IMG/VR virus record: IMGVR_UViG_3300036520_000018
Span: 4,312-68,311 of that record
Length of the DNA stretch: 64,000 nucleotides
Strand: one strand, 5' to 3'
DNA from: a virus
Taxonomy: Duplodnaviria; Caudoviricetes
Shown: positions 5,365 through 60,822 of the stretch, piece by piece
Layout of the letters: each line of letters starts with the position of its first letter
How positions within the stretch are numbered: position 1 is the stretch's first letter
Position numbers and translations under genes: made by a program
Notes under the pieces: generated by a model
The model's database searches: none
What the model was told of the DNA's origin: nothing
The model's input: only the letters and a program-made list of their open reading frames with translations

Positions 5365-5925
5365 ATGGCAGGACTTGGCCAGAAATTCGATCCGCGCAAC
5401 GTAGACACGGAGCAGCGCAGCTACGACAATCTTCCGGACGGCATCTATAAGCTGGAGGTGTCGGCAGCAGACGTGAAATCAGGTGACGGAAAAACGTCCG
5501 TCAACGCCACCATTCGCGTCATTGAGCCGGAGAACTACGCGGGCCGACAGTTCTTCAGCAACTACAACATCGAACATCCTAATGCGACCACCCAAGAAAT
5601 TGGTGAGAAGCAATTCGGTTCTCTTTGCCGTGCACTTGGCATCGACAAGCCGGTGGAAGACAGCGACGAACTGCTGTTCGAAGCCTTCTTTGGCAAAGTT
5701 GGTATGGGCAAGGACAGCAAGGAAAAGAACGATGATGGCAGCCCACGCTGGCCAGCCCGCAACGAGGTGAAGCGGTACTATTTCCCCGACAAGGAAGAGA
5801 TGCCCACTCCAGTGATCACCGGGTCCACATCTCCAAAGCCGGCCAACGACAACCGTCGTCCCGCTGCAAACGACAATGCCGCCCCCAGCACCGAACAGAA
5901 GAAGCGCCCTTGGGGTCAGAAGTAA
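5365..5925 (+). CDS. DUF669-family single-stranded DNA-binding protein
   Basis: YDNLPDGIYKLEV...GRQFFSNYNIEH...ARNEVKRY pattern; in the Sak4 operon; low-complexity tail with two ANDN. Confidence 0.8.
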   Translation: MAGLGQKFDPRNVDTEQRSYDNLPDGIYKLEVSAADVKSGDGKTSVNATIRVIEPENYAGRQFFSNYNIEHPNATTQEIGEKQFGSLCRALGIDKPVEDSDELLFEAFFGKVGMGKDSKEKNDDGSPRWPARNEVKRYYFPDKEEMPTPVITGSTSPKPANDNRRPAANDNAAPSTEQKKRPWGQK

Positions 5926-6068
5926 TGGTGACCATCGACGCTAAAGCACCCAAGGTCGACCTCGGTACCAAGCTGTGGGCAATCGGCTGGTGGACTCTGA
6001 TCGCGCTCGCGTTTGTCTGGGCAGTGTCCGGCCTAGTCACCGGCATCATTGGCTGGTGGGCTAACTAG
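5925..6068 (+). CDS. Small membrane protein (47 aa)
   Basis: TAATG overlap; LWAIGWWTLIALAFVWAVSGLVTGIIGWW hydrophobic stretch. Confidence 0.6.
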   Translation: MVTIDAKAPKVDLGTKLWAIGWWTLIALAFVWAVSGLVTGIIGWWAN

Positions 6069-6163
6069 CACCCACCAGAAAACACAAAGGCGGCCGGGGG
6101 GAACTACCACGAACCACCTTGCCGCCTTTGTAAATGCTCCCGTCACCACAACAGGAGAGTTCA

Positions 6164-7225
6164 ATGCCGACCACGATCGGACGAACTGAACTATTGCGCA
6201 TACTAGCAGCGGTGTCCAAAGTTGTCGACACTTGCAATACGATTCCTCTGCTTTCTCATGTTCTGATCGAAAGCGTGGATGGTAGGCTCACCGTGCGGGG
6301 TACCGATCTCGATATTCAAGCGGAAGGCACAATCGCTGCCGACGGCGACTTGGCTGTTGTCGCTGTGCCTGGCCGTGACCTCGACGGGATCGTTCGTCGG
6401 CTGGCTGGCACAGAAGTCGTCCTTGAGATGGATGGCGAGCAGTTGATCGTCCGTAGCGGTCGCTCCAAATTCAAGCTGCCCACACTGCCGGTCGATGGCT
6501 TTCCGATGCTTGGGGTCGGGGACTTTCTAGTCTCGTTCACTGCCGACCTAGCTGGTCTGACCAGCCAAGTGTCATTCGCCGCAGGTGCGCATTCGCAGCA
6601 CCCGATGTTGGTTGGCACCTATGTGCACGTCGAGGCGGGTCAACTAGTGGCTGTCGCGACTGACGGTAAGCGCATGGCTCGGGCTGTGGGCGATGACGCA
6701 CCAGAGTTCCCCGGCGTGATCCTGCCACCCAAGTTGTTGGCGCACATTCCCGCTGGTGCAGTGCAGGTCGAAGTCGGCGAGAACCGGATCCGGCTGTCCA
6801 CACCCCACCTGGTCGTGGTCAGCAAGCTGATCGAAGCCAAGTACCCGGCTTACCAGAAGCTCTGGCCGGCTGACTTCTTGGCCAGCGTCACCGTCAACCG
6901 GCGTGAACTCAAAGAAGCTGCCGAGCGCGTAGCTCTGGTGAGCGATGAGAACCTTGGCCGCGGTGTGCGCTTCAGCGTCGTGTCCGGCGCCGTGAACCTC
7001 AGCGTGCGGAGTCACACTCGTGGTGAAGCCAATGAGGAAGTGGCTGCCATCTACAGCGGCGACGAAAAGGACTGGGGATTCAACTGCTCGTCGCTGGCCG
7101 AAATGCTTGGGGCGATCCCCGGCGAGGAAGTGACCTTCAACCTGGCTGCTCGAGCAGCAGATATTCGAGGTTCCGAGCCAGTGGCTGGCGTTTTGACCTA
7201 CTTCGAACTGGGGAGTGCAGCGTGA
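6164..7225 (+). CDS. dnaN: DNA polymerase III beta sliding clamp
   Basis: IPLLSHVLIE, GTDLDI, RSKFKLPTLPVDGFP, VATDGKR, IEAKYPAY and GFN motifs. Confidence 0.92.
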   Translation: MPTTIGRTELLRILAAVSKVVDTCNTIPLLSHVLIESVDGRLTVRGTDLDIQAEGTIAADGDLAVVAVPGRDLDGIVRRLAGTEVVLEMDGEQLIVRSGRSKFKLPTLPVDGFPMLGVGDFLVSFTADLAGLTSQVSFAAGAHSQHPMLVGTYVHVEAGQLVAVATDGKRMARAVGDDAPEFPGVILPPKLLAHIPAGAVQVEVGENRIRLSTPHLVVVSKLIEAKYPAYQKLWPADFLASVTVNRRELKEAAERVALVSDENLGRGVRFSVVSGAVNLSVRSHTRGEANEEVAAIYSGDEKDWGFNCSSLAEMLGAIPGEEVTFNLAARAADIRGSEPVAGVLTYFELGSAA

Positions 7226-7431
7226 TGCGATTCACGGACAACGCAGATGCTCGCGCGGTGCTGGAGGAAGTCGCGGACTGTGCTCTCCATTGGGTGCCTG
7301 ATGCTCGGCTGATCGGCAACGTGCGGGCGGGGGACATCGCTCGCGCGTGTGGTGAAGCGCTCGACTACATGCCGGCGCGGGATGAGCGCTGTGCTTTCAC
7401 TTTGGATATGTTTGAAGGAGCGCCGGTATGA
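7222..7431 (+). CDS. Hypothetical protein
   Basis: Coupled at both ends to neighbours; ends FTLDMFEGAPV. Confidence 0.65.
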   Translation: MMRFTDNADARAVLEEVADCALHWVPDARLIGNVRAGDIARACGEALDYMPARDERCAFTLDMFEGAPV

Positions 7432-8096
7432 CCGTCCGCCTTATCGCCATTAGCCGTCCAGTCGTCGACGACGTACCGGACACCTCAGCCCTACTCGCCT
7501 ACTGCGCCCGCGTGTCCTCCACGGCCAACCAGAACAAGCATGAGACTGGTGGGAAGCTTCTGCGCTCGCTGGTGCGGCGTAAGGAATGGTCGCCCATGGA
7601 GATGGTCAGCCTCACCATGGAGATCGTCACGACGCGTGACATCGCCCGCCAGATTCTGCGCCATCGGTCTTTCTCGTTCCAGGAGTTCAGCCAGAGGTAT
7701 GCAGTCGTCGATGACGAGCCGGTGTTCCGTGAAGCGCGGCTGCAGCATCCCACTGATCGGCAGATGTCGGTTGAACTCGATGACCCGGTGATCGCCGAAA
7801 CTTGGCAGGCTATCCAAGCCGAAGTGCAAGTTACATCGACCAGTGCTTACCACTGGGCTTTAGGTCACGGCGTCGCCAAGGAAGTCGCCCGTGCCGTCCT
7901 GCCCGAAGGCATGACGCCTAGCCGGATGTACATGGCTGGTTCGTTGCGTTCCTGGTTGCACTACGTCGGTCTGCGCACCGAGCAGGGCACTCAAAAAGAG
8001 CATCGCGAGGTCGCTCTTGGTGTGGCCGCGATCCTGCGTGAGCAGTTTCCGGACCTGGCTGATCTAATTGGCGGGCAGGAAGAGGTGGCTGCCTAA
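7428..8096 (+). CDS. thyX: FAD-dependent thymidylate synthase
   Basis: RHRSFSFQEFSQRY signature; KEVARAVLP; RSWLHY. Confidence 0.96.
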   Translation: MTVRLIAISRPVVDDVPDTSALLAYCARVSSTANQNKHETGGKLLRSLVRRKEWSPMEMVSLTMEIVTTRDIARQILRHRSFSFQEFSQRYAVVDDEPVFREARLQHPTDRQMSVELDDPVIAETWQAIQAEVQVTSTSAYHWALGHGVAKEVARAVLPEGMTPSRMYMAGSLRSWLHYVGLRTEQGTQKEHREVALGVAAILREQFPDLADLIGGQEEVAA

Positions 8097-9040
8097 TGGT
8101 CCCAATTCCAAAGCCGCAGCCCAGTACGGTTCGCGCCATCTATGAGGCATACAAGCAGTCGAACGAACACTTTGACTCGCTAGGCATCAGTGTCGGTGAA
8201 ATCGGAACAGAGTGCGATCGCGCACTCTGGTTCGGCTTCCGATGGGCCAGCCAGCCGGAAGAAATCGACGGCCGTAAGATCAGCATCTTCCGCACCGGCG
8301 ACATGTGGGAAGACCGAATGGTTGCCGACCTCGAAGCCATTGGTGCTGAGGTGTTCGACCAGCAGAACCGCATTCGACTGGTAGGTGGGCATGTTCGTGG
8401 GAAAATTGACGGTAAGGCTATTGGTTTGCCGGAAGCGCCCAAAACCATTCACCTCATGGAGTTCAAGTCCAGCAACACCGAGAACTTCAAGGATGTCCAG
8501 AAGAAGGGTTGTAAGGAGTCAAAGCCTCTTCACTACGGTCAATGCCAGATTGGTATGCATGCCGAAGGCTTGGACCGGTGTGGCTACCTGGTGACCGACA
8601 AGGATACAGACAAGCGCTACTTCGAGCGCATCGAGTACGATCCAGTCTACTGCATGCGGCAGTTGGCTCGAGCCGAGCGTATCATCATGATGGACGAGCC
8701 ACCCAGCCGGCTGTGCAACAAGCGCGACGACTTCCGCGGAATGTTCTGCAAGCACGCAGCGGTGTGTTGGGCAGAAGCCTGGTCGAGAGTGACCTGCCGG
8801 TCGTGCCTGCATGCGACTCCGACCATGGATGGAGACGCTGCCTGGAACTGCTCACGCTGGTCGAAGCCGTTGTCAGTCGACGAGCAGAAGCAAGCCTGTG
8901 GTGCCCATTTGTACGTCCCGGCACTGGTGCCTGGCGGCGAGCAGGTTGACGTCGACGAGGAGAACGAAGTGGTCGTTTACCGGATGCCGGATGGCACCCT
9001 CTACCGCGACGGCGCAACCGAGGAGAACAATGCTGCCTGA
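8096..9040 (+). CDS. PD-(D/E)XK exonuclease (Cas4-like fold)
   Basis: RGKIDG...LMEFKS catalytic motif; Cys at ECDR and the C-terminal Cys cluster. Confidence 0.85.
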   Translation: MVPIPKPQPSTVRAIYEAYKQSNEHFDSLGISVGEIGTECDRALWFGFRWASQPEEIDGRKISIFRTGDMWEDRMVADLEAIGAEVFDQQNRIRLVGGHVRGKIDGKAIGLPEAPKTIHLMEFKSSNTENFKDVQKKGCKESKPLHYGQCQIGMHAEGLDRCGYLVTDKDTDKRYFERIEYDPVYCMRQLARAERIIMMDEPPSRLCNKRDDFRGMFCKHAAVCWAEAWSRVTCRSCLHATPTMDGDAAWNCSRWSKPLSVDEQKQACGAHLYVPALVPGGEQVDVDEENEVVVYRMPDGTLYRDGATEENNAA

Positions 9041-9076
9041 AGAAAGTTCCCGAATAAAGTCGATTCAACTTGCAAC

Positions 9077-9093
9077 ATGCGTTTATATGCGAT
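9077..9093 (+). promoter_or_regulatory. Dispersed motif copy 3
   Basis: ATGCGTTTATATGCGAT just before the helicase start. Confidence 0.65.
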
Positions 9094-9105
9094 AGAGACT
9101 CGGAC

Positions 9106-10782
9106 ATGAACTTTCAACCTCGACCATACCAGCGGCAAGCCGTAGACGCGATCAAGTCCGAGCTCGACATTGTCGATGCAACCGTCTTGGTTGCTTCCGT
9201 TGGTGCCGGCAAGACCATCATGCAGGCGATGTTCATCCAGGAGATGATAGGGGTATATCCCGAGGCTCGCTTCGTCTGTGCTGTGCACACCCGTGAATTG
9301 GTGCAGCAGAACGCAGAAGCCATGCTCCGTGCTTGGCCGTCGGCACCGATTGGGATCAACAGCGCAGCGCTAGGGCATCGCAAGACCCGTTCGCAGATAC
9401 TCTTTTGCTCTATCCAGAGCGTCCATAAGGCTGCCGCCGAGATTGGCTGGGTGGACTGCCTGATCGTCGACGAGGGGCATCTGATCAGCCCCAAGGCAAC
9501 AACCATGTACCGCCAGTTCATTGATGCGTTGCGCGCCATCAACCCTGATCTGCGCATCCTCCTGATGTCCGGCACGCCATGGCGGTTAGACAGCGGGGAT
9601 TTGACAGAAGGCGAGAACGCCATTGCCAAGACTGTGGCCTACGAGGTCCAGATCCGCGAGTTGATTGAGCAGGGTTTCCTGACCCGGCCCATCAGCAAAG
9701 GGACCGCAACAACCTTCGATATGACTGGCGTCCACACCCGTGGTGGTGAGTACGTTCTAGGTGAAGCCGAAGCGGCCGTGAACAAGCAGGAAATCACGGA
9801 ATCCGCTGTGCGCGAGATCGTCCAGTATGGTCAGGATCGCAAGGCGTGGCTCTTATTCTGCGCCGGCGTTGACCACGCATATGCCGTCCGCGATGAAGTT
9901 CGTCGGCACGGTGTCACTTGTGAGACTGTAGAAGGCACTATGGAGGCGGCTGAGCGTCGCCGTATCCTGGAAGCCTACAAGCGTGGCGAAATCCGCTGCC
10001 TCACGAACGTGAACGTGCTCAGCGTCGGCTTCGATTTCCCAGGTATTGATCTTGTTGCCCTGATGCGGCCGACCAAATCGCCCAGCCTCTATGTCCAGCA
10101 AGTCGGCCGTGGACTGCGCCTGTCACCTGGTAAGGACAACGTCTTGGTGCTTGACTTCGCCAACGTGGTTCGCACCCTCGGGCCGATTGACGATGTGAAG
10201 GTGAAGAAGCCGGGTAAGGGGCAAGGCGAGGCTCCGGTGCGCCAATGCCCGGACTGCCAGAGTATCTGCCACGCATCGGCGCGCGAGTGCCCCGACTGCG
10301 GCTTCCAGTTCCCCGAGTCCGACAAGCCAAAGCACTCCGCGTCAGCTGACGTGGTGCCGATGCTCTCCACCGAGCCGCCGGCTTGGGAACCCGTTAAGAG
10401 CCAAACCTTCCGCCGTCACGAAAAGCAGGGTGGTCTGCCCAGTGTCCGGATCGACTACATGGTCGGCATGAAGATCAACAAGGTCTGGCTCTGCCCAGAA
10501 CACACCGGATTCCCCAAGTCCAAGGCTGACCGTTGGTGGCACCAACACGGTGGCGCCCGTCCATTCCCGAAGACCGTTGATGAGTTCTTGGACCGGGCAG
10601 GGGAGCTTTGCGCGACTGCCGAGGTGCAGATCAAGTATGGCGGCAAGTGGCCGGAGATCGTCGACTTCCGTGCTGGCGAGCGGGTCGAAGGCAGCAACGA
10701 CAACATGGTTGTGCGCGATAGGAATGAGGAAGAGCGCCACCGCCTACGGAGCTTGGCTGCGGACTTCAATGTGCCGTTTTAG
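9106..10782 (+). CDS. Superfamily 2 DNA helicase (RadD-like) with zinc finger
   Basis: GAGKT, DEGH, SGT and QQVGRGLR motifs; CPDC...CPDC. Confidence 0.93.
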   Translation: MNFQPRPYQRQAVDAIKSELDIVDATVLVASVGAGKTIMQAMFIQEMIGVYPEARFVCAVHTRELVQQNAEAMLRAWPSAPIGINSAALGHRKTRSQILFCSIQSVHKAAAEIGWVDCLIVDEGHLISPKATTMYRQFIDALRAINPDLRILLMSGTPWRLDSGDLTEGENAIAKTVAYEVQIRELIEQGFLTRPISKGTATTFDMTGVHTRGGEYVLGEAEAAVNKQEITESAVREIVQYGQDRKAWLLFCAGVDHAYAVRDEVRRHGVTCETVEGTMEAAERRRILEAYKRGEIRCLTNVNVLSVGFDFPGIDLVALMRPTKSPSLYVQQVGRGLRLSPGKDNVLVLDFANVVRTLGPIDDVKVKKPGKGQGEAPVRQCPDCQSICHASARECPDCGFQFPESDKPKHSASADVVPMLSTEPPAWEPVKSQTFRRHEKQGGLPSVRIDYMVGMKINKVWLCPEHTGFPKSKADRWWHQHGGARPFPKTVDEFLDRAGELCATAEVQIKYGGKWPEIVDFRAGERVEGSNDNMVVRDRNEEERHRLRSLAADFNVPF

Positions 10783-10795
10783 CTTGCCCACAAAT

Positions 10796-11010: not shown

Positions 11011-11159
11011 AGTGGGAAACGACCATCGACCTGGACACACTCGTAGTTGCCTGCCGCGAAGTGGCTAGCACGGTGTCCACCAAACAATCCGCCACTGAAA
11101 CGCGCGAACAGTTCGTGCTTCGACTGGCACGTGCCGTTCTCTTGGAGATGCTGAAGTGA
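11007..11159 (+). CDS. Small hypothetical protein (50 aa)
   Basis: GTGA overlaps at both ends; MKWETTIDLDTLVVAC... Confidence 0.55.
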   Translation: MKWETTIDLDTLVVACREVASTVSTKQSATETREQFVLRLARAVLLEMLK

Positions 11160-11725
11160 CCTGGTCTGCCCTCAATACCGCCGAACGTATCTCCCGCATT
11201 CGCCACCTGACCTCCCTAGGCATGAGCCGGACGGAGCAGGCCACCCGCTTAGGTCTGCGCCTGACCTCCTTATCACAGTTCTGCTCCGCCAATGGCTTGG
11301 TGGCGGCCAATGCAAACACCACTAGTGAATGGTCCGGCTTGGACATCGATCAGCGTATCGCCCGTATCCGCGAGCTGCGCGACGATGGCCTGAGCGTGCG
11401 CCAGATCGCGGCCGAACTCGGGGTGTCGCACCCCGTCATCTACGGCTTCTGCCAAGATAACGGCATGGAGCGCCTGTTCGAGCGCCGCGTGAAGGTTGGC
11501 GGACCGCCCATGATCCCGGCTCGCCCTGTAGCGGTCGAGGCTTGGACGCCTGGCGCTAACCCCGTGACCCTGATGGACCTGGAAGATGGCATGTGCCGGT
11601 GGCCGGTCGATGTGGCTGGTGCGACCAAGCAGATGTTCTGCGGCTGTGCCGTGAAGGGCGAAGGCGAGTCTTATTGCTCGGGCCACGGCCGCGTAGCGCA
11701 GTTTGGGTTGGGGGCAGGCCAATGA
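11156..11725 (+). CDS. gcrA: GcrA-family cell cycle regulator with duplicated N-terminal HTH
   Basis: LMDLEDGMCRWPV...FCG...SYCSGH is the GcrA C-terminal signature; two W(S)xL...RI..(I/L)R.L...G(M/L)S...A..LG repeats. Confidence 0.8.
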   Translation: MTWSALNTAERISRIRHLTSLGMSRTEQATRLGLRLTSLSQFCSANGLVAANANTTSEWSGLDIDQRIARIRELRDDGLSVRQIAAELGVSHPVIYGFCQDNGMERLFERRVKVGGPPMIPARPVAVEAWTPGANPVTLMDLEDGMCRWPVDVAGATKQMFCGCAVKGEGESYCSGHGRVAQFGLGAGQ

Positions 11726-12354
11726 GCAACCCACTTCCGACTGTTGAAGGTGGTTTTGGCGTCATCCTGGCTGATCCACCATGGGCGTTCCGCTCATGGT
11801 CGGGCAAGACGGGTACCCCACACCGCAGCGCAAACGATCACTATATAACAACCGAAACAACCAAGTTGTGCGACATCCCTGTTGCCGACGTGGCGGCCAA
11901 GGACTGCTGCCTCTTTATGTGGGTGGTGGATAGCCACATTGGCGAAGCGATCGACCTCGGTCGTGCATGGGGCTTCGACATCAAGACGAAAGCCTTCACC
12001 TGGGTGAAGACCACCAAGACTGGCGTGCCAAAGATCGGCATGGGGTATTGGACGCGCAAGCAGACTGAAATCTGCCTGATGTTCACCCGTGGCAAGCCAA
12101 AGCGGCTCGACATGGGCGTGCGCGAACTGATCATGTCGCCTCGCCGTGAACATAGCCGCAAGCCAGACGAACAGTACGAGCGCATTCAACGCCTGGTTGC
12201 CGGCCCGTACCTAGAGATGTTTGCTCGCCAGGGTCGTCCCGGCTGGGCTGTGTGGGGAAACGAAGTCAACAAGTTCGACGAGCCTGCCAACGACAACACT
12301 CCGTCCACGCCAGTGGATGGTGTAGCCGACCTTTTCTCGGCAGGTGCAGCATGA
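11722..12354 (+). CDS. MT-A70 family N6-adenine methyltransferase
   Basis: VILADPPW, LFMWV, HSRKPDE and LEMFAR motifs. Confidence 0.92.
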   Translation: MSNPLPTVEGGFGVILADPPWAFRSWSGKTGTPHRSANDHYITTETTKLCDIPVADVAAKDCCLFMWVVDSHIGEAIDLGRAWGFDIKTKAFTWVKTTKTGVPKIGMGYWTRKQTEICLMFTRGKPKRLDMGVRELIMSPRREHSRKPDEQYERIQRLVAGPYLEMFARQGRPGWAVWGNEVNKFDEPANDNTPSTPVDGVADLFSAGAA

Positions 12355-12640: not shown

Positions 12641-13375
12641 ATGGACTACGCGAACGATAATCAGGACGGAAAGGTCTGCACGAAGTGTGGAGAGTGGAAA
12701 GCGCTCGCCCTGTTTTACAACAAGAAGCGACGTTCCGGAAAAATGGCCAAAACTGCTCGATGCAAGCAGTGCATCGATGAGACCAATCGTGCCTGGCGTC
12801 TTGAGAACCGCGAACTTGACCTGGCTCTCAAGCGGACCTACGCAGCGGCAAAATCCGCGGAAGTAGTTGAGCGTGTCAGATTGTGGCGCCTGAAGCCCGG
12901 TAATCGAGAGCGCAAGAACACTCTGGAGCAGGCGAGACGTAAAGCGCAATCCCCCGAGCAGAAGCGCCGAAGCATGGATATGGAGAATGCGCGTCGTCGC
13001 CGCCAGCTCGCCAACGATCCAATAGCAAAGATGCTTAAGAGGATGCGTCAGATGCTTGAGCGCACCTACCGTGCGATTGGAACGCCCAAACAAAAGAAGA
13101 CCAGGGAACTACTAGGTTTCTCGCCTGAGCAACTTCAACTTCGAATGGAGTGTCAGTTCAAGCCAGGCATGTCTTGGGACAATCATGGTCAATGGCACAT
13201 CGATCATAAGAAGCCGATCGCCGCATTTGTGAGGCAGGGCATTCTCGATCCACGGCAGATCAATATGCTTTCCAACCTTCAGCCGCTATGGGCGCCTGAA
13301 AACTACAGCAAGAGCGCTGCGTGGCCGCTGATTGCAGCCAATGACAACCAGAAGCGAGACAAAGATGCAGCCTGA
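12641..13375 (+). CDS. HNH endonuclease
   Basis: N-terminal CTKC/CKQC; WHIDHKKP...NLQPLWAPENYSK. Confidence 0.9.
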   Translation: MDYANDNQDGKVCTKCGEWKALALFYNKKRRSGKMAKTARCKQCIDETNRAWRLENRELDLALKRTYAAAKSAEVVERVRLWRLKPGNRERKNTLEQARRKAQSPEQKRRSMDMENARRRRQLANDPIAKMLKRMRQMLERTYRAIGTPKQKKTRELLGFSPEQLQLRMECQFKPGMSWDNHGQWHIDHKKPIAAFVRQGILDPRQINMLSNLQPLWAPENYSKSAAWPLIAANDNQKRDKDAA

Positions 13376-15689
13376 ATCCAAATCGATGATGGACCTGGCT
13401 CTGGAATATGCTGCCTCTGGGTGGCCGGTATTTCCAGTTAGAGCAGCCGACGAGGAACTGTTCGACGCAAGCACCGGCGAGTTCATCACCTATGGTGCCA
13501 AGAGCCCGCTGACACCTCGCGGCTTCCGCAATGCGACCAAGAATGAGCGGATCATTCGTCGTTTGTGGGAAGACAATCCGACAGCCATGGTCGCCATCCC
13601 AACTGGTGCACCCACCGGTGTTTGGGTACTCGACGTCGACCAGGGCGAGGATGTTGATGGATCGGCGACACTCGCTGCGCTTGAAGCCGAACACGGCAAT
13701 CTGCCTGAGACTGTGACCGTACAGACTCCCTCCGGGGGGCGCCATTTCATTTTCCGCTTGCCTTATGGTCAGCAAGTCCGCAATCGCGGCCGCTTTGCTC
13801 CTGGCCTAGACACTCGAGGAGACGGTGGGTTCATCGTCGCAGCCGGCTCAGTTCGCGCTGACGGTCGCGCCTATACCTGGGAGTCACGTCCGCCTGAACC
13901 GGCCGACGCTCCTCAATGGCTGATCGACATGGTCGTAAAGCAAGACTCTCCCACGCCCGTCGGCGGTACTGCACCATCCACAGGGTACGTAGAGGCGGCC
14001 GTCGAAGCCGAAATCGATCGGCTGGAAAGCACCACGTCTGGGCGCAACACCCAGTTGAACGAGTCTGCCTTTGCGCTGGGCACTTTGGTGGGTGCCGGAG
14101 TTCTGGATCGAGCCACTGCTGAAAGTCGACTGTTTGCTGCCGCCCAGTTCAACGGGTATGTGGCGAAAGACTCCGCAGGGGCAGCCCGTGCCACGATCCG
14201 CTCTGGCCTGGACTCCGGCGCCAAACACCCACGCCAAGTGCCCGAAGAAATGACGGCAGAGGAGGGCGCTCGTCTCGCCGTTAACCTGATCGGCATGGAC
14301 AAGGGCGAACAGGCCGCGCTCGTGGACCTTGGCCGGTATTTGTCCGCAAAGCTGGTCAGCCGCCCACCTTTGGCACCGTCGTTCGTGCCCGAGCCGCAGG
14401 AGAACGAGCCGGCTGCACCACCTATGCACGCGGATCCGTTCAATCCATTGGCTGCCGACGGGCTGCTCCGCCACATCGCTGAGTGGATCACCGAGACTGC
14501 CATCATGCCAGTACCAGAACTCTCCCTGGCGGCCGCATTGGGGCTGCTCGCTGGCCTGTTCGGCGACAAGGCTCTTGGTCCGACCTACACTGGTGTGAAC
14601 CTGTACCTGACTACAATCCTGGGCACGGCCGGTGGCAAAGGCTACCCACCCAAGGCCATCCGTCGCATCAGCGACAAACTGGGCGCCATGGGCGTAGTCA
14701 GCAACGGCGACCACACGTCCTACGCCGCGTTCGAACGCACCCTGCGCAAGTCCAACACCAAGTCGGTGACCGTGGTGATGGATGAGTTCGGCATCACCTT
14801 GCAGGACGTCAACAACAAGCGGAATGGCTCGGCAGCCAGTGCGTCAATCCGCAAATTCCTGCTCGCCATCTATGACCAGGCGAACTCAGTGTTCGACGGT
14901 CGCACCTACGCGTCTGCTGACGCCAAGGGTACCGACGAGCCGATCGAAGGGCCTGCGCTTACCGTGTTGGGTATGACCACGCTCGACACACTGTATGCGG
15001 GTCTGACCGAAGCTAGCATCAGCGACGGCTTCCTCAACCGCTTCGTGTTCGTCACGGCACAGGATCGTGGGCACCAGGTCACCCCGCCACGATTGCACCA
15101 GGACTTCTCGATTCCGGCGCACATCGAGAAGGGTGTGGACTCCGCTGTCCATGCGTTCGCTGCTCGCCGCGGTGACCAGAAGGACAAGTGGCGCGTGCCA
15201 TTCCTCGGCGACGAAGGCGGGGCAGCCTACAAACGCTGGGGCGAAATCTTCGTCTGGCAGTTCGATCCACGCTGGCCATCGGAGAAGCGCGACATTCGAG
15301 CTCGTGCGGCTGAGAACACGCTGCGTCTGGCCACATTGCGGGCCATCAGCAAGTACGCGGCCAATCCTGCGATCACTGTCGAGGACATCGAGTGGGCTTG
15401 GGCCGTGGTCTACCGCTCCATCCTGCTGGTTCAGGAAGGTATCCGCGACCACATGTCGGCGTCACCGGCTGAGACGCTGCGGAAGTCCGTGCTGGAGGCG
15501 CTGCGAGATAGTTCAGAGCCGGTCCCTTACTCCAAGCTGCTGAGCCGACGTGGGGTGCGTGGTTCAGACACGCGCCAGGTCGAGGAGGCTCTTCGGTGGC
15601 TACTTGATGCGAAGGAAATTGTTGATCTCAACGCAAAGCCGAAGGCTGGGGCTGGCAGCAAGTTTGCGGTGTGCGAGGAGGCGGCGTGA
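13365..15689 (+). CDS. Bifunctional primase-polymerase with C-terminal DUF3987-like helicase domain
   Basis: GWPVFP, VLDVD, TPSGGRHFIF and DTRGDGGFIV Prim-Pol motifs; GRNTQLN; MDEFG and DGFLNRF. Confidence 0.88.
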   Translation: MQPESKSMMDLALEYAASGWPVFPVRAADEELFDASTGEFITYGAKSPLTPRGFRNATKNERIIRRLWEDNPTAMVAIPTGAPTGVWVLDVDQGEDVDGSATLAALEAEHGNLPETVTVQTPSGGRHFIFRLPYGQQVRNRGRFAPGLDTRGDGGFIVAAGSVRADGRAYTWESRPPEPADAPQWLIDMVVKQDSPTPVGGTAPSTGYVEAAVEAEIDRLESTTSGRNTQLNESAFALGTLVGAGVLDRATAESRLFAAAQFNGYVAKDSAGAARATIRSGLDSGAKHPRQVPEEMTAEEGARLAVNLIGMDKGEQAALVDLGRYLSAKLVSRPPLAPSFVPEPQENEPAAPPMHADPFNPLAADGLLRHIAEWITETAIMPVPELSLAAALGLLAGLFGDKALGPTYTGVNLYLTTILGTAGGKGYPPKAIRRISDKLGAMGVVSNGDHTSYAAFERTLRKSNTKSVTVVMDEFGITLQDVNNKRNGSAASASIRKFLLAIYDQANSVFDGRTYASADAKGTDEPIEGPALTVLGMTTLDTLYAGLTEASISDGFLNRFVFVTAQDRGHQVTPPRLHQDFSIPAHIEKGVDSAVHAFAARRGDQKDKWRVPFLGDEGGAAYKRWGEIFVWQFDPRWPSEKRDIRARAAENTLRLATLRAISKYAANPAITVEDIEWAWAVVYRSILLVQEGIRDHMSASPAETLRKSVLEALRDSSEPVPYSKLLSRRGVRGSDTRQVEEALRWLLDAKEIVDLNAKPKAGAGSKFAVCEEAA

Positions 15690-16150
15690 TGGTGCGGGTA
15701 CGAGCAAAGAAAACCACCGTCACCCTCGCCAACGGCACCAAGGTGCAGCGCACCACGCTGGTGAAAGCACCGGTTCTCGAGTGGCGTCTGCAAGCTTCGG
15801 CGGTTCGCGCTCTGCGTGCGATGCCGGAGTTTGGGCGACGTTTTACCCTGGCCGGCGACATGGCGGCCGCGCGCCGATCGCCACAGGAGTCCGTCAAGAT
15901 GAAGGCTACTGGACTTGTGCCAGGGGAGCCAGATTTGCGCCTCTACCTGGAGGGTGGCCGGCTCTACTTCATCGAGTTCAAGGGTGAGAAGGGCAGGGAG
16001 TCCGCAGAGCAGATCGACCGCATTGCGCTCCTGGATACGCTCGGGTTCACGGTTGTCGTCGTCCAGGTCGCAACAGAAGAAGAGGCAGCACAACGGGCAG
16101 TGGAACTGGTCCGTGGGTGGCTACCGGCGAATGATAATGAGGTGGTGTGA
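15689..16150 (+). CDS. VRR-NUC domain nuclease
   Basis: GLVPGEPDL...FIEFKGEKGRESAEQ. Confidence 0.88.
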   Translation: MVRVRAKKTTVTLANGTKVQRTTLVKAPVLEWRLQASAVRALRAMPEFGRRFTLAGDMAAARRSPQESVKMKATGLVPGEPDLRLYLEGGRLYFIEFKGEKGRESAEQIDRIALLDTLGFTVVVVQVATEEEAAQRAVELVRGWLPANDNEVV

Positions 16151-16368
16151 TGCAAGAGCAGTACGAGCAGATCGCCATAAGATTGGCTGAACGGCTTGAG
16201 CGAGCCGAGGACTGGGAACAGTACCTTCAGCATAGCGCATTTCTATGGTGGTTCGCCGAACGTCGGGCCGAGAAATTAGGCTATATTTCGCTTTGGTCAC
16301 CAGGATGGGAACTGCGTGAGCGGTTCATCGACTGGGCGATAGATCACACGATAGAGGCTTTTCGGTAA
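16147..16368 (+). CDS. Hypothetical protein
   Basis: Coupled between VRR-NUC and the polymerase. Confidence 0.6.
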   Translation: MMQEQYEQIAIRLAERLERAEDWEQYLQHSAFLWWFAERRAEKLGYISLWSPGWELRERFIDWAIDHTIEAFR

Positions 16369-18245
16369 TGCCCAGCGTCATTCTCGATACCGAGGTCTAC
16401 CCCGGATATTTCCTCGCCGCCTTGAAGAACATCGAGACCGGTGAAGTGGTCGCGCTCGAGCGCATCACGGGCCCGTCCGGCCAAGACACCGAACTCGACA
16501 TAACCACGCTCTCCGACATCATGGAGAACGACCTGACCTATGGCTTCAACTCGCTGCCGTTCGACTGCGTGATCATTGCCGCCGCTATAGCCGGTCTGTC
16601 CAATGCTGACCTGGTGGCGATCCGTGACGCCCTGATCGTTCTCAAGGAGCCAATCTGGGCAGTGGAGCGCAATTTCAAGTTCCGCGTGCCCAAACGCTGG
16701 AACCACATCGACCTTATTGAAGTGGCTCCGCTCGACGCCAGCCTCAAAATCTACAATGGCCGACTGCATGGTAAGCGCATGCAGGATCTGCCGTATGACC
16801 CAAACATGCGGCTCAACGCCGAACAGCGTGAGCAAGTCAAGGATTACTGCATCAACAGCGACATTCCGGCTACGGAATTGCTCCTCAACTCGCTCGCAGA
16901 ACCGTTGGCCCTGCGGAATGAGATGTCCATCCAGTACAGCATGGACCTGCGCTCCAAGTCAGACGCGCAGATCGCTGAGGCGGTGATCAAGAAGGAAGTC
17001 GAAAAGATAACCCGCCGAGAGGTCGCCAAGCCCCCGGTGGAAGAACCCGGCGAGTTCAACTACACGCCGCCGGCATTCATCGGCTACAGCACCCCATACA
17101 TGCAGGATGTCCTGCGCCAAGCCTGCGCTGTGCCGATCGTCATCGATTACAACGGCCGGGTGTCCGCGCCAGGGTTCGATGCGTTCAACATTCGTATCAA
17201 CAAATCCACCTATAAGATCGGCATCGGCGGCATTCACAGCCAGGAGTCCTGCCGCACCCTGCAAAGCACGGAGACGCACACGCTGCTGGATCGTGACGTG
17301 GCCAGCTACTACCCGGCGCTGATCATTAACAACGACCTGGCGCCTTCGGCATTGGGCGAGCACTTCATGCCGATTTACCGCGGTATCCGCGACAGGCGCC
17401 TCGATGCCAAGCGTGCGAAACGAAAAACCACAGCCGAGTCCCTCAAGATCGTGATCAACGGGACCTTCGGAAAGCTCGGCCAGCCTGGCTCGATCCTTTA
17501 CGCACCGCGACAGATGATCAACACGACGCTGACCGGCCAGTTGGCGTTGCTTATGGCGATCGAGGAGGTTGAAGCTGCCGGCATTGAAGTGGTCAGCGCC
17601 AATACCGACGGCTTCACGTCCATGGTGCCGCACGACCAACGCGAGCAGTTCAACGCGATCATGTCTGACTGGGAAGAGCGCACCAACTTCGAGACCGAAG
17701 AGGTTGCCTATCGCTCGATGCACAATCGGGATGTGAACAACTACATCGCGATCAAGGATGACGGCAGCCACAAGGGTAAGGGCGTGTTTGCGAACCCTTG
17801 GTCAGCCAGCCCGCCGGACTATCGTGGGCAATTGTCCAAGAACCCGCAGACCACGATCTGCATCGAAGCAGTCGTGGCTTACCTCACGCACGGCACGCCG
17901 TTACGCACCACCATAGAAGCCTGCCAGGACATCCGGCAGTTCGTCACCGTGCGCAAGGTCAACGGTGGCGCAACCTGGAATGGGCAGTACCTCGGGAAGG
18001 CGATCCGCTGGTACTATGCTGCACGCCAGTACGCTCCCATCCACTATGCCAGTAACGGCAACCGCGTGCCAAAGTCCGACGGTGCAATGCCGATCATGGA
18101 GTTGCCGGAAGCGCTGCCTAACGACATCGACTACGACTGGTATGTGCGCGAGGCTGAGAGCATGTTGGTCGACATCGGTGCGGTGCCTGGGATGCGTCGT
18201 AAAGGTGAGCCCGACGAGCGCGAGATGGACTTGTTCGCGGCTTAG
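16368..18245 (+). CDS. Family B DNA polymerase
   Basis: DTE exonuclease motif, DVASYYP motif A, KIVINGTFG motif B, ANTDG motif C. Confidence 0.92.
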   Translation: MPSVILDTEVYPGYFLAALKNIETGEVVALERITGPSGQDTELDITTLSDIMENDLTYGFNSLPFDCVIIAAAIAGLSNADLVAIRDALIVLKEPIWAVERNFKFRVPKRWNHIDLIEVAPLDASLKIYNGRLHGKRMQDLPYDPNMRLNAEQREQVKDYCINSDIPATELLLNSLAEPLALRNEMSIQYSMDLRSKSDAQIAEAVIKKEVEKITRREVAKPPVEEPGEFNYTPPAFIGYSTPYMQDVLRQACAVPIVIDYNGRVSAPGFDAFNIRINKSTYKIGIGGIHSQESCRTLQSTETHTLLDRDVASYYPALIINNDLAPSALGEHFMPIYRGIRDRRLDAKRAKRKTTAESLKIVINGTFGKLGQPGSILYAPRQMINTTLTGQLALLMAIEEVEAAGIEVVSANTDGFTSMVPHDQREQFNAIMSDWEERTNFETEEVAYRSMHNRDVNNYIAIKDDGSHKGKGVFANPWSASPPDYRGQLSKNPQTTICIEAVVAYLTHGTPLRTTIEACQDIRQFVTVRKVNGGATWNGQYLGKAIRWYYAARQYAPIHYASNGNRVPKSDGAMPIMELPEALPNDIDYDWYVREAESMLVDIGAVPGMRRKGEPDEREMDLFAA

Positions 18246-46720: not shown

Positions 46721-46773
46721 CACCGCGCAAATGGCCTGCCTTCGGGCGGGCCGCACTCATTTAGGAGCCATCA

Positions 46774-54670: not shown

Positions 54671-55330
54671 GTGTCCACCGACTCTCTCGAATACCTCGCC
54701 TCGCGATACGGCGACGATCGGCCGAACTACTTACTCTGTGCTGCGGCACTGATGGCTGTGATCGCCATTGGCACCCTTGTCTACACCGCTCCGACCGGCC
54801 CTTCCATCCCGCCCATCACCTCAGCTCACGTCAAGGTCGAGACCAAGCTTGGTCACGGTAGCGCAACGCACATCGGCGAAGGTTTGTATGTGACCGCTGC
54901 TCATGTCGTCGGCAGCAACAAGACTGCTCAGATCAACGGTGTCGAAGTCGAAGCCCTTTGGGCTAACGACACCTATGACATTGCTGTGCTGTCTGGTCCC
55001 AATCAGGCCGCTAGTGTTCCGCTGGCCTGCTATACGCCAACAATCGGCGAGACTGGCGAAGCGCATGGTAATCCCATGGCGTTCAACGACATCACTACAC
55101 GTGTCGTGGTCGCTGGTGCGCCAGCCACCATTGGCGAGTGGAAGGTTGCTGTGCCAGTTGACGGCACCGTTGGTCCCGGCATGTCCGGCGGCGCATTCGT
55201 TATCGGTGGTGCTTTGGTAGGCGTTAACGTTGGCGCTGCACTAGCGCCTGCCGGTTCGTTCCCTTCTTACTTCGGTCTTTCCATCATCGTCCCCGGTTCG
55301 GTCGTCTGCGATCTGCTTGGGCGTAAGTGA
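54671..55330 (+). CDS. Membrane-anchored trypsin-like serine protease
   Basis: TM segment; VTAAHVV (His), YDIAVL (Asp), GMSGG (Ser). Confidence 0.88.
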   Translation: MSTDSLEYLASRYGDDRPNYLLCAAALMAVIAIGTLVYTAPTGPSIPPITSAHVKVETKLGHGSATHIGEGLYVTAAHVVGSNKTAQINGVEVEALWANDTYDIAVLSGPNQAASVPLACYTPTIGETGEAHGNPMAFNDITTRVVVAGAPATIGEWKVAVPVDGTVGPGMSGGAFVIGGALVGVNVGAALAPAGSFPSYFGLSIIVPGSVVCDLLGRK

Positions 55331-55335
55331 AATCG

Positions 55336-55369
55336 TGCCCGCTGCCCTTCTGGGTGGCGGGCATTTTTT
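55336..55369 (+). terminator. Intrinsic terminator
   Basis: TGCCCGCTGCCC-TTCT-GGGTGGCGGGCA-TTTTTT. Confidence 0.85.
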
Positions 55370-55400
55370 GTCTCTGGGATTCCGAGGAGCCTCCCAAAAC

Positions 55401-56672
55401 ATGACCACCCAATTCACCACTCAACAGATCGCCGAGGCGTTCATCGCCCATGATCGCAATCAGTCTGCTACGGCGGTTGCTGTCGGCTGCAGCCGCGAGA
55501 CTGTCCAGCGTCACTTACGTTTGGCGAGCGAGCAGGGCTTGCTTGGCACAGCACCGGTGCTGCCTGGTTTCCGGATCAGCAAGCTGACGAGTACGCCCAA
55601 CGGCGACTTCATTCAGCAGAAGCCCGAACTTGGGCCGGAATATACCCCGACAGACGGCCTTGGGCTGAAGGGTAAGACTACCTGGGTCGGCGCCGATGGG
55701 CGTGTCGAGCGTCAAGTCTTCATGGAGCGCTCCAGCGCAGAGCAGCAACGTGCGGTGCTCGACGCTATAATCGCCAGCCTGAAAGAGGAACTGCCGCGGG
55801 TCGCGCCTGTCCCGCTTAACGAAGCTGCCACTTTATGGAACGACGAACTCCTGAACCAATACACCGTCACGGACAATCATTTCGGGATGCTGTCCTGGCG
55901 TGAGGAAACGGGCGCCGACTACGATCTGCGCATCGCAGAGGCTCTGCTTCTTGATTGGTTTGCTGCCGCTATTCAAACTGCCCCAAACTCCCACACGGCA
56001 GTGCTGGCTCAACTGGGTGACCTGCTGCACCATGATGGCTTGGAGAGCGTTACGCCGACCAGCAACCATGTACTTGACGCTGACTCGCGCCTGCAGAAGG
56101 TTATCCGAGTGGTGATCCGTTGCTTCCGCCGGATCATCGACATGCTGCTTGCCAAGCATCAGCACGTTCATGTCGTGATGGCGTCCGGCAACCACGATCC
56201 CGCATCGTCAGCCTGGCTGCGCGAGTTGTTCGCCACGCTTTATGAGAATGAGCCTCGGGTCACTGTCGACACCAGCCCTGACCTCTACTACGCCTTCGAA
56301 TGGGGGCAGACCGGTCTTTACTACCACCACATGCACAAGCGTGGGGTGAAGGATCTGGACCGTACCTTCGCCGGTAAGTTCCGCGAGATGTTCGGCCGCT
56401 GCCGCTACAACTATGGGCACGGTGGACATCTGCATTCTGACGCAGTCGTCGAGACTGCTCTTATGCACATCGAACGTCATGAAACGTTGGCAGCACCCGA
56501 TGCCTACGCAAGTGGCGGCGGCTGGATGTCTGGGCGCTCTGCCAAGGTTATCACTTACAGCAAGCGGTTCGGCGAAGTTGGGCGGTCCACCCTACGACCA
56601 GAGATGGTCGTTGGTGCCTCAGCCGTTGGCGTACCAGCCAACGACAACGTCAAGTTCGATAAGGCTGCGTGA
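55401..56672 (+). CDS. Calcineurin-like metallophosphoesterase with N-terminal HTH
   Basis: TDNHFG, LGDLLH, GNHD and GHLH motifs; ends PANDNVKFDKAA. Confidence 0.8.
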   Translation: MTTQFTTQQIAEAFIAHDRNQSATAVAVGCSRETVQRHLRLASEQGLLGTAPVLPGFRISKLTSTPNGDFIQQKPELGPEYTPTDGLGLKGKTTWVGADGRVERQVFMERSSAEQQRAVLDAIIASLKEELPRVAPVPLNEAATLWNDELLNQYTVTDNHFGMLSWREETGADYDLRIAEALLLDWFAAAIQTAPNSHTAVLAQLGDLLHHDGLESVTPTSNHVLDADSRLQKVIRVVIRCFRRIIDMLLAKHQHVHVVMASGNHDPASSAWLRELFATLYENEPRVTVDTSPDLYYAFEWGQTGLYYHHMHKRGVKDLDRTFAGKFREMFGRCRYNYGHGGHLHSDAVVETALMHIERHETLAAPDAYASGGGWMSGRSAKVITYSKRFGEVGRSTLRPEMVVGASAVGVPANDNVKFDKAA

Positions 56673-56797
56673 TGGACGAAGTTACTGCCACTATTCTCGG
56701 CTTTGCCGTCATATTTGTCGGCTTCCCAGCTTCATGGGCGCTCATCTGGGCGTTCGTCAGATGGGTTAAGCACAAGGTACCCTACCGTAATTGGTAG
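56672..56797 (+). CDS. Small membrane protein (41 aa)
   Basis: TGATG overlap; hydrophobic core. Confidence 0.55.
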   Translation: MDEVTATILGFAVIFVGFPASWALIWAFVRWVKHKVPYRNW

Positions 56798-56840
56798 CCG
56801 CCTAACCACCACACCACACCAAACTACCACAAGGACAATA

Positions 56841-58886: not shown

Positions 58887-59104
58887 TGACCCAGTACCGC
58901 ATCATCAGCCAGCCAGGTTGCAAGTACTGCCGCATGGCCAAGGAACTGCTCACCAGCCGTGGGTTGACCTACAGCGAAGAACTTCTGCTCCACCCGGAAC
59001 AGAAGGCATCCTTCAAGGCTCAAGGCTTCGCCACCGTCCCGCAAATCTGGGACGCCGACCGCCATATCGGCGGTTACACCGAACTAGCCGCTGAACTCGG
59101 CTAA
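58886..59104 (+). CDS. Glutaredoxin
   Basis: CKYC, TVPQIW and IGGYTEL motifs. Confidence 0.92.
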   Translation: MTQYRIISQPGCKYCRMAKELLTSRGLTYSEELLLHPEQKASFKAQGFATVPQIWDADRHIGGYTELAAELG

Positions 59105-59156
59105 CCTAGGGCGGCTACGGCCGCTCCTCACTACACCACTGAGGAGAACTACCACT

Positions 59157-59579
59157 ATGACAACCTGGCAAGTACCAGCTTCTATGATCCCGTCGAACGA
59201 CAATCTCGACCACGCCGCCAACATCAACGCGCTTTGCGCAGAGATTCACGCCGACAACATCGCAGCCGGCTGGTGGACAGACATCAACACTGGGGAGAGC
59301 ATCGTCGCGACACGCAACGTCCCCGAAATGCTTTGCCTGATCCACTCCGAGATCAGCGAGGCCATGGAGGGTCACCGTAAGGACCTCCAAGACGACAAGC
59401 TGCCGCATCGCAAGATGATGGAAGTGGAGCTCGCCGACGCCGTGATCCGCATCTTCGACTTGGCTGGCTCACGCGGCTATGACCTCGGCGGCGTCATCCA
59501 GGAGAAGCGTGCCTTCAACAAGACTCGTGCTGACCACAAGATTGAGAACCGGAAGGCTGCCGGCGGGAAGGCGTTCTGA
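59157..59579 (+). CDS. MazG-like NTP pyrophosphohydrolase
   Basis: LIHSEISEAMEG; EVELADAVIRIFD. Confidence 0.85.
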   Translation: MTTWQVPASMIPSNDNLDHAANINALCAEIHADNIAAGWWTDINTGESIVATRNVPEMLCLIHSEISEAMEGHRKDLQDDKLPHRKMMEVELADAVIRIFDLAGSRGYDLGGVIQEKRAFNKTRADHKIENRKAAGGKAF

Positions 59580-60172
59580 TGTTTGGGTTGGCAGGAAAAG
59601 ACGAAATCAATCTGCAGAACAACGGTGCACCGCGCATCGGCGACTGGATTGCCACCTACACCGGCAAGGCGGTCTTCCCGATGGACCTTCGCGCTGAAGA
59701 CATCGACATCATTGACATCGCGCACAGCTTATCCCTGCAGTGCCGCTTTAATGGCCACTGCTTAAGGTTCTACAGCGTGGCTGAGCATTCAGTCCTAGTC
59801 AGTCGTTGGCTGCTTGAAGAGTACGGTCATACGGCTGCCTTGTGCGGTTTGCTGCACGACGCCACCGAAGCATACCTAACTGACGTGCCGAGGCCGGTGA
59901 AGCCATTCTTGCACGGCTACAAAGAAGCTGAATTGAACGCTTGGTATGCTGTCGCAGCGCGGTTTGGCCTCGATGCTGTGTTTGCGGAAGGGGTTCATGA
60001 GGCGGACAATCGTATCTTGTTCGATGAAAAAGCTCAGAACATGGGAGTGGGTCCAGACTGGTCCTGGGCCATGGAACCACTTGGAGTAAGCCTCCAGTTT
60101 TGGACGCCGGAGCAAGCCAAAGCTGAGTTTTTGAAGACCTTCTGGAATCTAATCGAAACGGGGACATTGTGA
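59579..60172 (+). CDS. HD-domain 5'-deoxynucleotidase (YfbR-like)
   Basis: CRFNGH, YSVAEHS and LLHDATEAY motifs. Confidence 0.9.
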   Translation: MFGLAGKDEINLQNNGAPRIGDWIATYTGKAVFPMDLRAEDIDIIDIAHSLSLQCRFNGHCLRFYSVAEHSVLVSRWLLEEYGHTAALCGLLHDATEAYLTDVPRPVKPFLHGYKEAELNAWYAVAARFGLDAVFAEGVHEADNRILFDEKAQNMGVGPDWSWAMEPLGVSLQFWTPEQAKAEFLKTFWNLIETGTL

Positions 60173-60822
60173 TGTTTGCAAGTGAATTGACCGTCGGCGA
60201 AGTTTCACCTGTCCACCCATCTGGTGACACGCCGTTCTGCCGCAGTTGGGAACAACGGCACCTACCACCACTTACCGCGGCCAATGACAACAGCAAGTTG
60301 CCCCGTGTCGTCGCCTTGGCAGGTGTTGCTGGCTCGGGCAAGTCCACACTGGCCGAATACCTCATTGAACGTCATGGCTATCAGCGCATCAAATTTGCTG
60401 GCCCGCTCAAAGCCATGTGCCGCGCGATCGGTATGACTGAAGCCATGATTGAGGGCGACCAAAAGGAACTGCCAGTGTCGTGGCTGGAAGGCCGTTCACC
60501 GCGGTACGTCATGCAGCGGCTGGGAGGCGACTGGGGCAGGGACCTGATCGGCCCTAACCTTTGGACCGGACTTTGGACCAAGGCTGCCAACGACGTTCTC
60601 AAGGCTGGCGGCCGTGTAGTCACCGATGACTGTCGCTATGACAACGAAGCTCTGACTGTCCAGGCTCTTGGAGGATTGGTGATCAAGCTGCAGGGCAGGG
60701 GTGGTATTGGCACCGGCCATGCGTCCGAACAGATCACTGACGAAGTGGACGTGGTGCTGCGCAACCAAGGTACGATCCGCGAGCTCTATGATCGTTTGGA
60801 CGAGGTGTTGTTCGCGGGTTAG
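60169..60822 (+). CDS. Deoxynucleoside monophosphate kinase
   Basis: LAGVAGSGKST, FAGPLK, MQRLG, DCRYDNE and HASE motifs. Confidence 0.9.
   Translation: MMFASELTVGEVSPVHPSGDTPFCRSWEQRHLPPLTAANDNSKLPRVVALAGVAGSGKSTLAEYLIERHGYQRIKFAGPLKAMCRAIGMTEAMIEGDQKELPVSWLEGRSPRYVMQRLGGDWGRDLIGPNLWTGLWTKAANDVLKAGGRVVTDDCRYDNEALTVQALGGLVIKLQGRGGIGTGHASEQITDEVDVVLRNQGTIRELYDRLDEVLFAG

Follow-up and report, generated by a model that had tools for sequence, protein, structure and literature searches.

The closest described precedent for the elements considered here is the ssrA-like tag on the repressor of mycobacteriophage BPs, where a temperate phage encodes a degron that sets the stability of its own protein via a host protease, the tag being removed by integration (integration-dependent immunity; PMC4557955). 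In the general tag pathway, which has been reviewed together with the design of the SspB-dependent DAS+4 degron and its Caulobacter-optimised versions (PMC8138137), the transfer-messenger RNA (tmRNA) tag of Caulobacter is AANDNFAEEFAVAA, and deletion of sspB slows the degradation of an ssrA-tagged protein there (PMC9393093). Here we consider a stretch of 64,000 nucleotides of phage DNA (bases 4312-68311 of the 68.3-kb IMG/VR provirus record IMGVR_UViG_3300036520_000018; hereafter, the window), in which the tetrapeptide ANDN, found in the head of alphaproteobacterial tags, is encoded within the genes of many early, mostly DNA-handling proteins. The adaptor SspB-alpha reportedly relies on the NDN residues, and it is the only known reader of the tag head in alphaproteobacteria. 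Full-text literature searches found no published description of phage ANDN or ssrA-tag mimicry. The BPs case differs in that it is described for one regulator, which carries no more of the tag than its C-terminal end, and the host there lacks SspB, whereas in the window phage a dozen enzymes have the predicted adaptor-binding head, with or without the end.

In a six-frame translation of the window we observed 11 ANDN sites, all on the plus strand and all in the coding frame of called genes; there were none in the other frames, on the minus strand or in the intergenic DNA. For the crude window proteome used in the statistics (92 open reading frames, ORFs; 21,421 amino acids, aa), the expectation from composition is 0.18 (Poisson P ~1e-16), and shuffling within proteins (5000 times) yields 0.23 sites on average and at most 4, ANDN being the most over-represented tetrapeptide of this proteome. 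The tripeptide NDN is preceded by A or S in 14 of 14 cases, and ANDN itself by P (n = 6), A (n = 4) or Y (n = 1). The sites are situated close to the protein ends, at 4-40 aa from the N-terminus or 7-27 aa from the C-terminus, and the 27-kb virion block (26.1-53.4 kb, 8,821 residues) contains none (P = 0.003). The sites and their variants, all on the plus strand, are the following.

4976-5029, plus strand: ANEN followed by a terminal LAA (ANENIADALRTLADNLAA-stop), end of a 359-aa protein (gene 3953-5032).
5842-5877, plus strand: two ANDN copies, at 5842 and 5866 (PANDNRRPAANDN), in the C-terminal tail of a DUF669/SSB-like protein (gene 5365-5925), residues 160 and 168 of 186.
10693-10704, plus strand: SNDN in the C-terminal tail of a helicase (gene 9070-10782), 29 aa before the end.
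12286-12351, plus strand: tail of an MT-A70 methyltransferase (gene ~11728-12354), PANDNTPSTPVDGVADLFSAGAA-stop, with an ANDN head, a DLF motif resembling clamp-binding motifs and a terminal AA.
12650-12661, plus strand: N-terminal ANDN (MDYANDN, residue 4) of an endonuclease VII-like protein (gene 12641-13375).
13334-13372, plus strand: whole-tag look-alike AANDNQKRDKDAA-stop at the C-terminus of the same endonuclease VII-like protein, with ANDN at 13337 and 12 aa from its A to the end.
16127-16147, plus strand: ANDNEVV-stop after P, C-terminus of a VRR-NUC nuclease (gene 15671-16150).
22150-22161, plus strand: N-terminal ANDN (residue 9) of a T5orf172/GIY-YIG-like protein (gene 22126-22692).
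22850-22861, plus strand: ANDN at residue 40 of a 314-aa protein, phrog_36072 (gene 22733-23677).
23636-23674, plus strand: ANDNYAANLRKLG-stop after A, C-terminus of the same 314-aa protein; 13 aa, a native-like length, with the end LG and not AA.
56637-56669, plus strand: whole-tag look-alike ANDNVKFDKAA-stop after P (PANDNVKFDKAA-stop), SbcD-like DNA repair exonuclease (gene 55317-56672).
59193-59204, plus strand: SNDN at residue 13 of a MazG-like pyrophosphatase (gene 59157-59579).
60280-60291, plus strand: ANDN (residue 38) in the N-terminal extension of a deoxynucleoside monophosphate (dNMP) kinase (gene 60169-60822), directly before the P-loop.

The 11 sites are encoded by seven distinct 12-mers, which differ from each other at wobble positions only and are embedded in unrelated flanking DNA. 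Thus, selection on ANDN works at the level of the peptide, and the element is a short linear motif rather than a DNA element. A preliminary description of the window, made from the letters alone, had already argued for peptide-level selection from the varied codons, had placed the sites in terminal or linker segments, mostly after P or A, outside the virion proteins, and had estimated well below one chance hit; the counts above confirm the observation. Its 11 ANDN coordinates and the variants SNDN (10693, 59193) and ANEN (4976) are correct, and its protein labels broadly hold. It did not list one more SNDN (46553), which is internal to the tail sheath protein and may be due to chance.

Terminal Ala-Ala, to which we now turn, is the second and independent hallmark of ssrA/ClpX degrons. 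Such C-termini are observed in 12 of the 92 window ORFs with 1.1 expected, one of them (a minus-strand 85-aa ORF) being doubtful. Among the carriers of the motif, AA ends are present on the endonuclease (DAA), the exonuclease (KAA), the MT-A70 methylase (GAA) and the ANEN protein (LAA), and are lacking on the VRR-NUC nuclease (EVV), the 314-aa protein (KLG) and the SSB-like protein. Hence three or four of the C-terminal sites (endonuclease, exonuclease and methylase, and possibly the ANEN variant) appear, from their sequence, to be look-alikes of a whole tag. Several other products end in AA with no ANDN, six of them in the early block between 6134 and 21464 and the portal outside it.

6134-7225, plus strand: DNA polymerase III beta clamp (SAA).
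7428-8096, plus strand: ThyX (VAA).
8096-9040, plus strand: Cas4-like exonuclease (NAA).
13332-15689, plus strand: primase-polymerase (EAA).
16368-18245, plus strand: DNA polymerase (FAA).
20922-21464, plus strand: 180-aa protein (IAA).
28420-29940, plus strand: portal (EAA).

The arrangement of head and end was considered in a pooled set of 100 ANDN sites from ten phage records. The preceding residue is A in 55 cases and P in 33 (88/100), and 75 of the 100 sites are located within 45 aa of a terminus, with 38% expected. In 27 of the 53 C-terminal sites the distance to the end is 11-14 residues (P = 2e-14 when compared with a uniform spread), the pooled P-values overstating independence because related phages inherit many of the sites; nonetheless, the 85 carrier proteins represent 41 unrelated families. 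Among these 27 sites, 25 end in Ala and 17 in Ala-Ala. For comparison, native ANDN tags from IMG/VR tmRNA genes, identified with ARAGORN, comprise 13-15 residues, and nearly all end in AA, mostly in LAA. The head, the spacing and the end jointly reproduce a native tag, and neither docking to a clamp nor proteolytic cleavage predicts that.

The phage tails thus share with the native alphaproteobacterial ssrA tag the [A]ANDN head and, at C-termini, a similar length (11-14 residues vs 13-15) and the terminal Ala-Ala, but they are encoded in the genes, whereas the native tag is added by trans-translation. The middle of the phage tag is polar and Pro-rich where the native one is hydrophobic, D, K or E often takes the place of L or V as the third residue from the end, and about half of the phage copies consist of the head alone, at the N-terminus or inside the protein. 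Unlike in native tags, Pro is frequent at position +2 after the motif (ANDN-x-P, 37 of the 100 pooled sites), where it might adjust the affinity or hold the tail in an extended form.

The distribution of the motif was assessed in a panel of 15 isolate phage genomes, each taken in full. ANDN is strongly enriched in Rhizobium phage 16-3 (14 observed, 0.12 expected), Sinorhizobium phage NV1.1.1 (19 and 0.13), RHph_TM3_3_14B (12 and 0.13) and RHph_X2_25 (13 and 0.13), and the same ANDN-rich isolates have 11-18 AA-ending proteins each vs approximately 1.2 expected (13 in 16-3). In eight phages of gamma- and betaproteobacterial hosts (lambda, P22, 66FD, D3, PAJD-1, Mannheimia 535AP2, Bordetella PBb001 and Variovorax VPv62) we observed 0-1 ANDN each, so in this small panel ANDN is not equally common where the host tag lacks it. 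The corresponding tag head of gamma and beta hosts, AND[DE]N, has no occurrence in the same eight phages, and no equivalent trick is seen there; the control with the reversed pattern gave approximately zero in the panel phages.

A scan of IMG/VR for NDN followed by 7-9 codons and AA-stop yielded further ANDN-rich records with 7-22 pattern matches each, as well as approximately 17 genuine tmRNA genes (ARAGORN). The trait is specific to certain lineages, namely temperate rhizobial phages of the 16-3 type, along with some unrelated contigs. Tag-like ANDN tails occur, for example, in G009, a complete record of 44 kb (PANDNLRKGNRFAA-stop, AANDNMRASEAAAA-stop), whose overlap with the window is limited to virion genes and a phosphatase and which shares hardly anything with the 16-3 group. 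No phage gene is common to all ANDN-rich phages, which points to a reader encoded by the host.

Homologues of the window proteins demonstrate how individual sites persist or turn over. Sites with drifting flanks are conserved in the exonuclease (ANDN invariant in 4/4 panel homologues, the flanking residues varying), the 314-aa protein (the copy at residue 40 is kept in NV1.1.1 and TM3_3_14B), the dNMP kinase (kept in 16-3, NV1.1.1 and X2_25), the SSB-like protein (ANDN also present in the tails of the 16-3, NV1.1.1 and TM3_3_14B homologues) and the helicase, where the 16-3-like phages have ANDN in place of the SNDN of the window and the homologues from Pseudomonas and Variovorax phages have none. 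Sites have been gained, lost or shifted in the endonuclease VII-like, VRR-NUC, T5orf172 and Cas4-like exonuclease families and in the dNMP phosphatase. Homologues from Pseudomonas, Variovorax, Bordetella, Salmonella, Mannheimia and Rhodobacter phages contain no ANDN. Among 120 MT-A70 homologues with cores identical at 63-96%, the tail beyond WGNEVGKFD is variable, ANDN being present in 21 and an AA end in 49; one homologue ends in AANDNVLAAA-stop. This pattern of turnover is that of a short linear motif under selection.

We suggest, with a probability of about 0.58, that ANDN is a genome-encoded mimic of the host ssrA tag, located on flexible termini of numerous early proteins, most of which handle DNA, with SspB-alpha and ClpXP as its putative reader. 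The tails are mimics and not true ssrA tags, as they are encoded in the ORFs and the record contains no tmRNA gene; sspB is likewise absent from it. According to the proposed scheme, the host adaptor SspB-alpha would bind the [A/P]ANDN head and tether the protein to ClpXP, and ClpX would engage the terminal Ala-Ala. Tails such as ...KDAA and ...DKAA would be weak ClpX degrons, hence degradation would be strongly adaptor-dependent, as proposed by analogy with engineered DAS+4 tags, and N-terminal and internal copies would serve as tethers only. Similarly to the engineered ssrA-DAS+4 degron (PMC8138137), in which the SspB-binding head is intact and a spacer leads to a weakened ClpX-binding end, so that degradation depends on the adaptor, the phage tails would contain all three parts, but the engineered degrons are synthetic, whereas those of the phage are natural and predicted from sequence. 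The lifetime of about a dozen DNA-handling enzymes is then probably tied to the host SspB-ClpXP system. The likely benefit would be that nucleases, methylases and replication proteins are short-lived, with a lifetime set by the host, which would limit the harm from leaky expression in the lysogen and time the early functions.

Several observations weigh against such a mimic. The match to the tag of this particular host presumes that the latter is of the usual alphaproteobacterial kind. The residues following ANDN are polar and Pro-rich, while native tags there tend to be aromatic or hydrophobic, and the affinity could be low if SspB-alpha also reads these positions. About half of the sites are N-terminal or internal, or belong to proteins with no AA end, and a role in degradation is less obvious for them. 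The shared inheritance of the pooled sites, mentioned above, tells in the same direction. The motif is also rare in other alphaproteobacterial phages of the panel (Rhodobacter RcMeacham, n = 0; Sphingomonas Carli, n = 0; Rhizobium RHph_TM3_3_3, n = 1), so while the SsrA-mimic proposal of the preliminary description stands as far as the sequence goes (peptide motif, tag head, native-like spacing and terminal Ala-Ala), it does not extend to alphaproteobacterial phages in general. Finally, a beta clamp gene is present in every large complete ANDN-rich record.

This last fact bears on one of two alternatives that were raised by the annotation, both of which have been weakened. ANDN could dock enzymes to a replisome hub, either the phage DNA polymerase III beta clamp (6134-7225), which has all three Pfam clamp domains, or the clamp of the host, and so gather them at the fork. 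The clamp gene occurs in 4/4 ANDN-rich isolates and in all large complete ANDN-rich IMG/VR records, while the ANDN-poor panel phages lack it; moreover, the ANDN carriers are mostly DNA-handling enzymes, and the motif is terminal, as clamp-binding motifs are. Clamp-binding motifs (Qx[SD]LF) and SSB tails (DDDIPF) are likewise short and located on flexible termini, in enzymes of replication and repair, and both kinds are present in the window phage (DLF on the polymerase and methylase; DFNVPF on the helicase). However, ANDN fits neither consensus and coexists with these motifs in the same tails: it is polar, unlike the hydrophobic Qx[SD]LF (or QLxLxL), and a separate DLF stands beside it (ANDN...ADLFSAGAA), with EMDLFAA on the polymerase. 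The complete record G009 combines tag-like ANDN tails with the absence of a clamp gene, and docking leaves unexplained both the spacing of 11-14 residues to Ala-Ala and the fact that the clamp, ThyX and the portal themselves end in AA, which makes this alternative improbable. The other one, that ANDN is a processing site at which a phage trypsin-like protease (54671-55330) trims terminal peptides from early proteins, draws on the presence of this protease (phrog_9683; a weak match to Pfam Trypsin_2, 26 bits, just below the cut-off) in the window phage, 16-3, NV1.1.1, TM3_3_14B and X2_25 and its absence from the ANDN-poor panel phages. We consider it highly improbable: a search of the complete ANDN-rich records G003, G004, G014, G015 and G009 yielded no homologue (a very divergent one could be missed), the removal of 3-7 terminal residues (MDY/ANDN, ANDNEVV-stop) has no obvious purpose, and cleavage accounts neither for the terminal Ala-Ala nor for the native-tag spacing.

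More plausible than these two, yet still unlikely, is that the motif is read by another host factor (a protease adaptor, a chaperone or a modifying enzyme), or, as the preliminary description also suggested, that the tagged proteins are decoys that would saturate SspB and thereby spare ssrA-tagged or other cargo. The many sites lacking a C-terminal degron, and the difference of the post-ANDN residues from native tags, would fit it; on the other hand, SspB-alpha is the sole known reader of the alphaproteobacterial tag head, and the whole-tag look-alikes with AA ends favour delivery to ClpXP over pure competition. An element acting in DNA or RNA (a binding site, a Chi-like signal or a repeat), as well as chance or composition, has a negligible probability. 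All copies are indeed on one strand, but the carrier genes are all on that strand too, and the 11 copies are in the coding frame, vary at wobble positions only (seven 12-mers) and have dissimilar flanks; there is no intergenic or other-frame copy, the reversed-pattern control is near zero, and no shuffle exceeded four. Both the DNA-level repeat and chance were rejected, being effectively refuted by the frame and codon data. Capture of an ssrA sequence by the prophage was also rejected, as in that case a single copy would be expected, and not 11 with different codons.

Returning to the ssrA-mimic reading, it may be extended, though only tentatively, to the statement that this phage lineage and some unrelated phages set the lifetimes of their early proteomes by a modular copy of the host degron, with the [A/P]ANDN head either alone, as a tether, or joined to a ClpX end kept weak on purpose; a natural, adaptor-dependent network of degrons encoded by a virus would then be described in bacteria for the first time. 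If so, phage protein stability, and perhaps the balance of lysis and lysogeny, would track the SspB-ClpXP capacity of the host and its trans-translation load, linking phage development to the load on ribosome rescue. Phages would then use bacterial adaptor-mediated proteolysis as eukaryotic viruses use degron mimicry, there would be an explanation for the short life of toxic nucleases and methylases in temperate phages, and the tails would constitute a natural set of graded SspB-dependent degrons. ANDN enrichment together with AA ends would provide a simple signature for annotation, and Rhizobium phage 16-3 with Sinorhizobium meliloti is a tractable pair with the same signature (14 ANDN; 13 AA-ending proteins).

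The window phage is temperate and of the myovirus type. Its early block (3-24 kb) encodes an AAA_24 ATPase, the DUF669/SSB-like protein, the beta clamp, ThyX, the Cas4-like exonuclease, the helicase, a GcrA homologue, the MT-A70 methylase, the endonuclease VII-like protein, the primase-polymerase, the VRR-NUC nuclease and the DNA polymerase. The virion block (25.6-53 kb) includes a Nu1-like small terminase, the large terminase, a lambda-type portal, a protease-capsid fusion and the tail sheath, and it is followed by a nucleotide-metabolism block (54.6-60.8 kb) with the protease, the SbcD-like exonuclease, a class II ribonucleotide reductase, the MazG-like pyrophosphatase, a dNMP phosphatase and the dNMP kinase. 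Two genes associated with lysogeny are on the minus strand.

G000 1403-2557, minus strand: integrase.
Window 2023-2922, minus strand: S24/helix-turn-helix (HTH) repressor.

In the BPs type the tag is on the repressor, and on the integrase as well, and is removed on recombination of attP inside the gene. Unlike the BPs type, neither the repressor nor the integrase of the window phage has ANDN or an AA end.

Given the presence of a GcrA gene and the closest named homologues of the phage proteins (Mesorhizobium, Allorhizobium, Kaustia, Corticibacterium and Falsochrobactrum), the sequence places the host in Alphaproteobacteria, probably in Hyphomicrobiales. The large terminase is 47% identical to those of Rhodobacter RcMeacham-type phages, and the replication genes show 36-42% identity to those of the Rhizobium phage 16-3 group. 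A megablast search against phages and plasmids revealed no close relative, and a search for related loci with the 314-aa protein and the terminase recovered nothing beyond a Megasphaera prophage and a distant viral contig of 4 kb.

The gene of the GcrA homologue (PF07750, 57 bits) is immediately upstream of the MT-A70 methylase gene and overlaps it (window 11156-12354, plus strand). The true start of the methylase is probably near 11728, since its homologues have approximately 190-208 aa.

DLF tails are found at 12325-12351 (MT-A70, ADLFSAGAA-stop) and 18222-18242 (polymerase, EMDLFAA-stop), with QADLFAA, QPSLFAYAA and ADLFGVVA in related phages. The C-terminus of the helicase (10762-10779, plus strand) is DFNVPF, and its homologues have DDEVPF or DDDIPF, as in the C-terminal tail motif of bacterial SSB, which suggests that the helicase borrows the SSB docking peptide.

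AA ends are moderately enriched in ANDN-less phages also, with 6 of 71 ORFs in lambda (including portal B, Bet and NinG), 5 of 66 in P22 and 8 of 80 in RHph_TM3_3_3, where approximately 0.6-1 would be expected in each; this suggests that AA-end degrons may be widespread on phage proteins. The homologues of the trypsin-like protease (54671-55330, plus strand) in 16-3, NV1.1.1, TM3_3_14B and X2_25 all end in AA (4/4).

A family of approximately 400 aa (16-3, 2202-3392; TM3_3_14B, 46161-47429; G008, G013, G015 and G018) has ANDN tails of 12-19 residues, mostly 13 with an AA end (PANDNNPDDEAQAA-stop). It is probably the portal, since in 16-3 its gene directly follows the terminase genes. Hence, in relatives ANDN is not strictly limited to non-virion proteins, while the portal of the window phage has the AA end only.

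Several large IMG/VR records (L095, 578 kb with direct terminal repeats; L137, L102, L094, L120 and others) encode tmRNAs whose tags are of the ANDN type, such as ANDNFVASEIRLAA in L120. No SspB gene was found in these records or in any other phage record considered. They look like jumbo phages with a tmRNA of their own.

In the virion block of the window, a single 681-aa ORF (29937-31982, plus strand) encodes the major capsid protein with an N-terminal S78 prohead protease domain.

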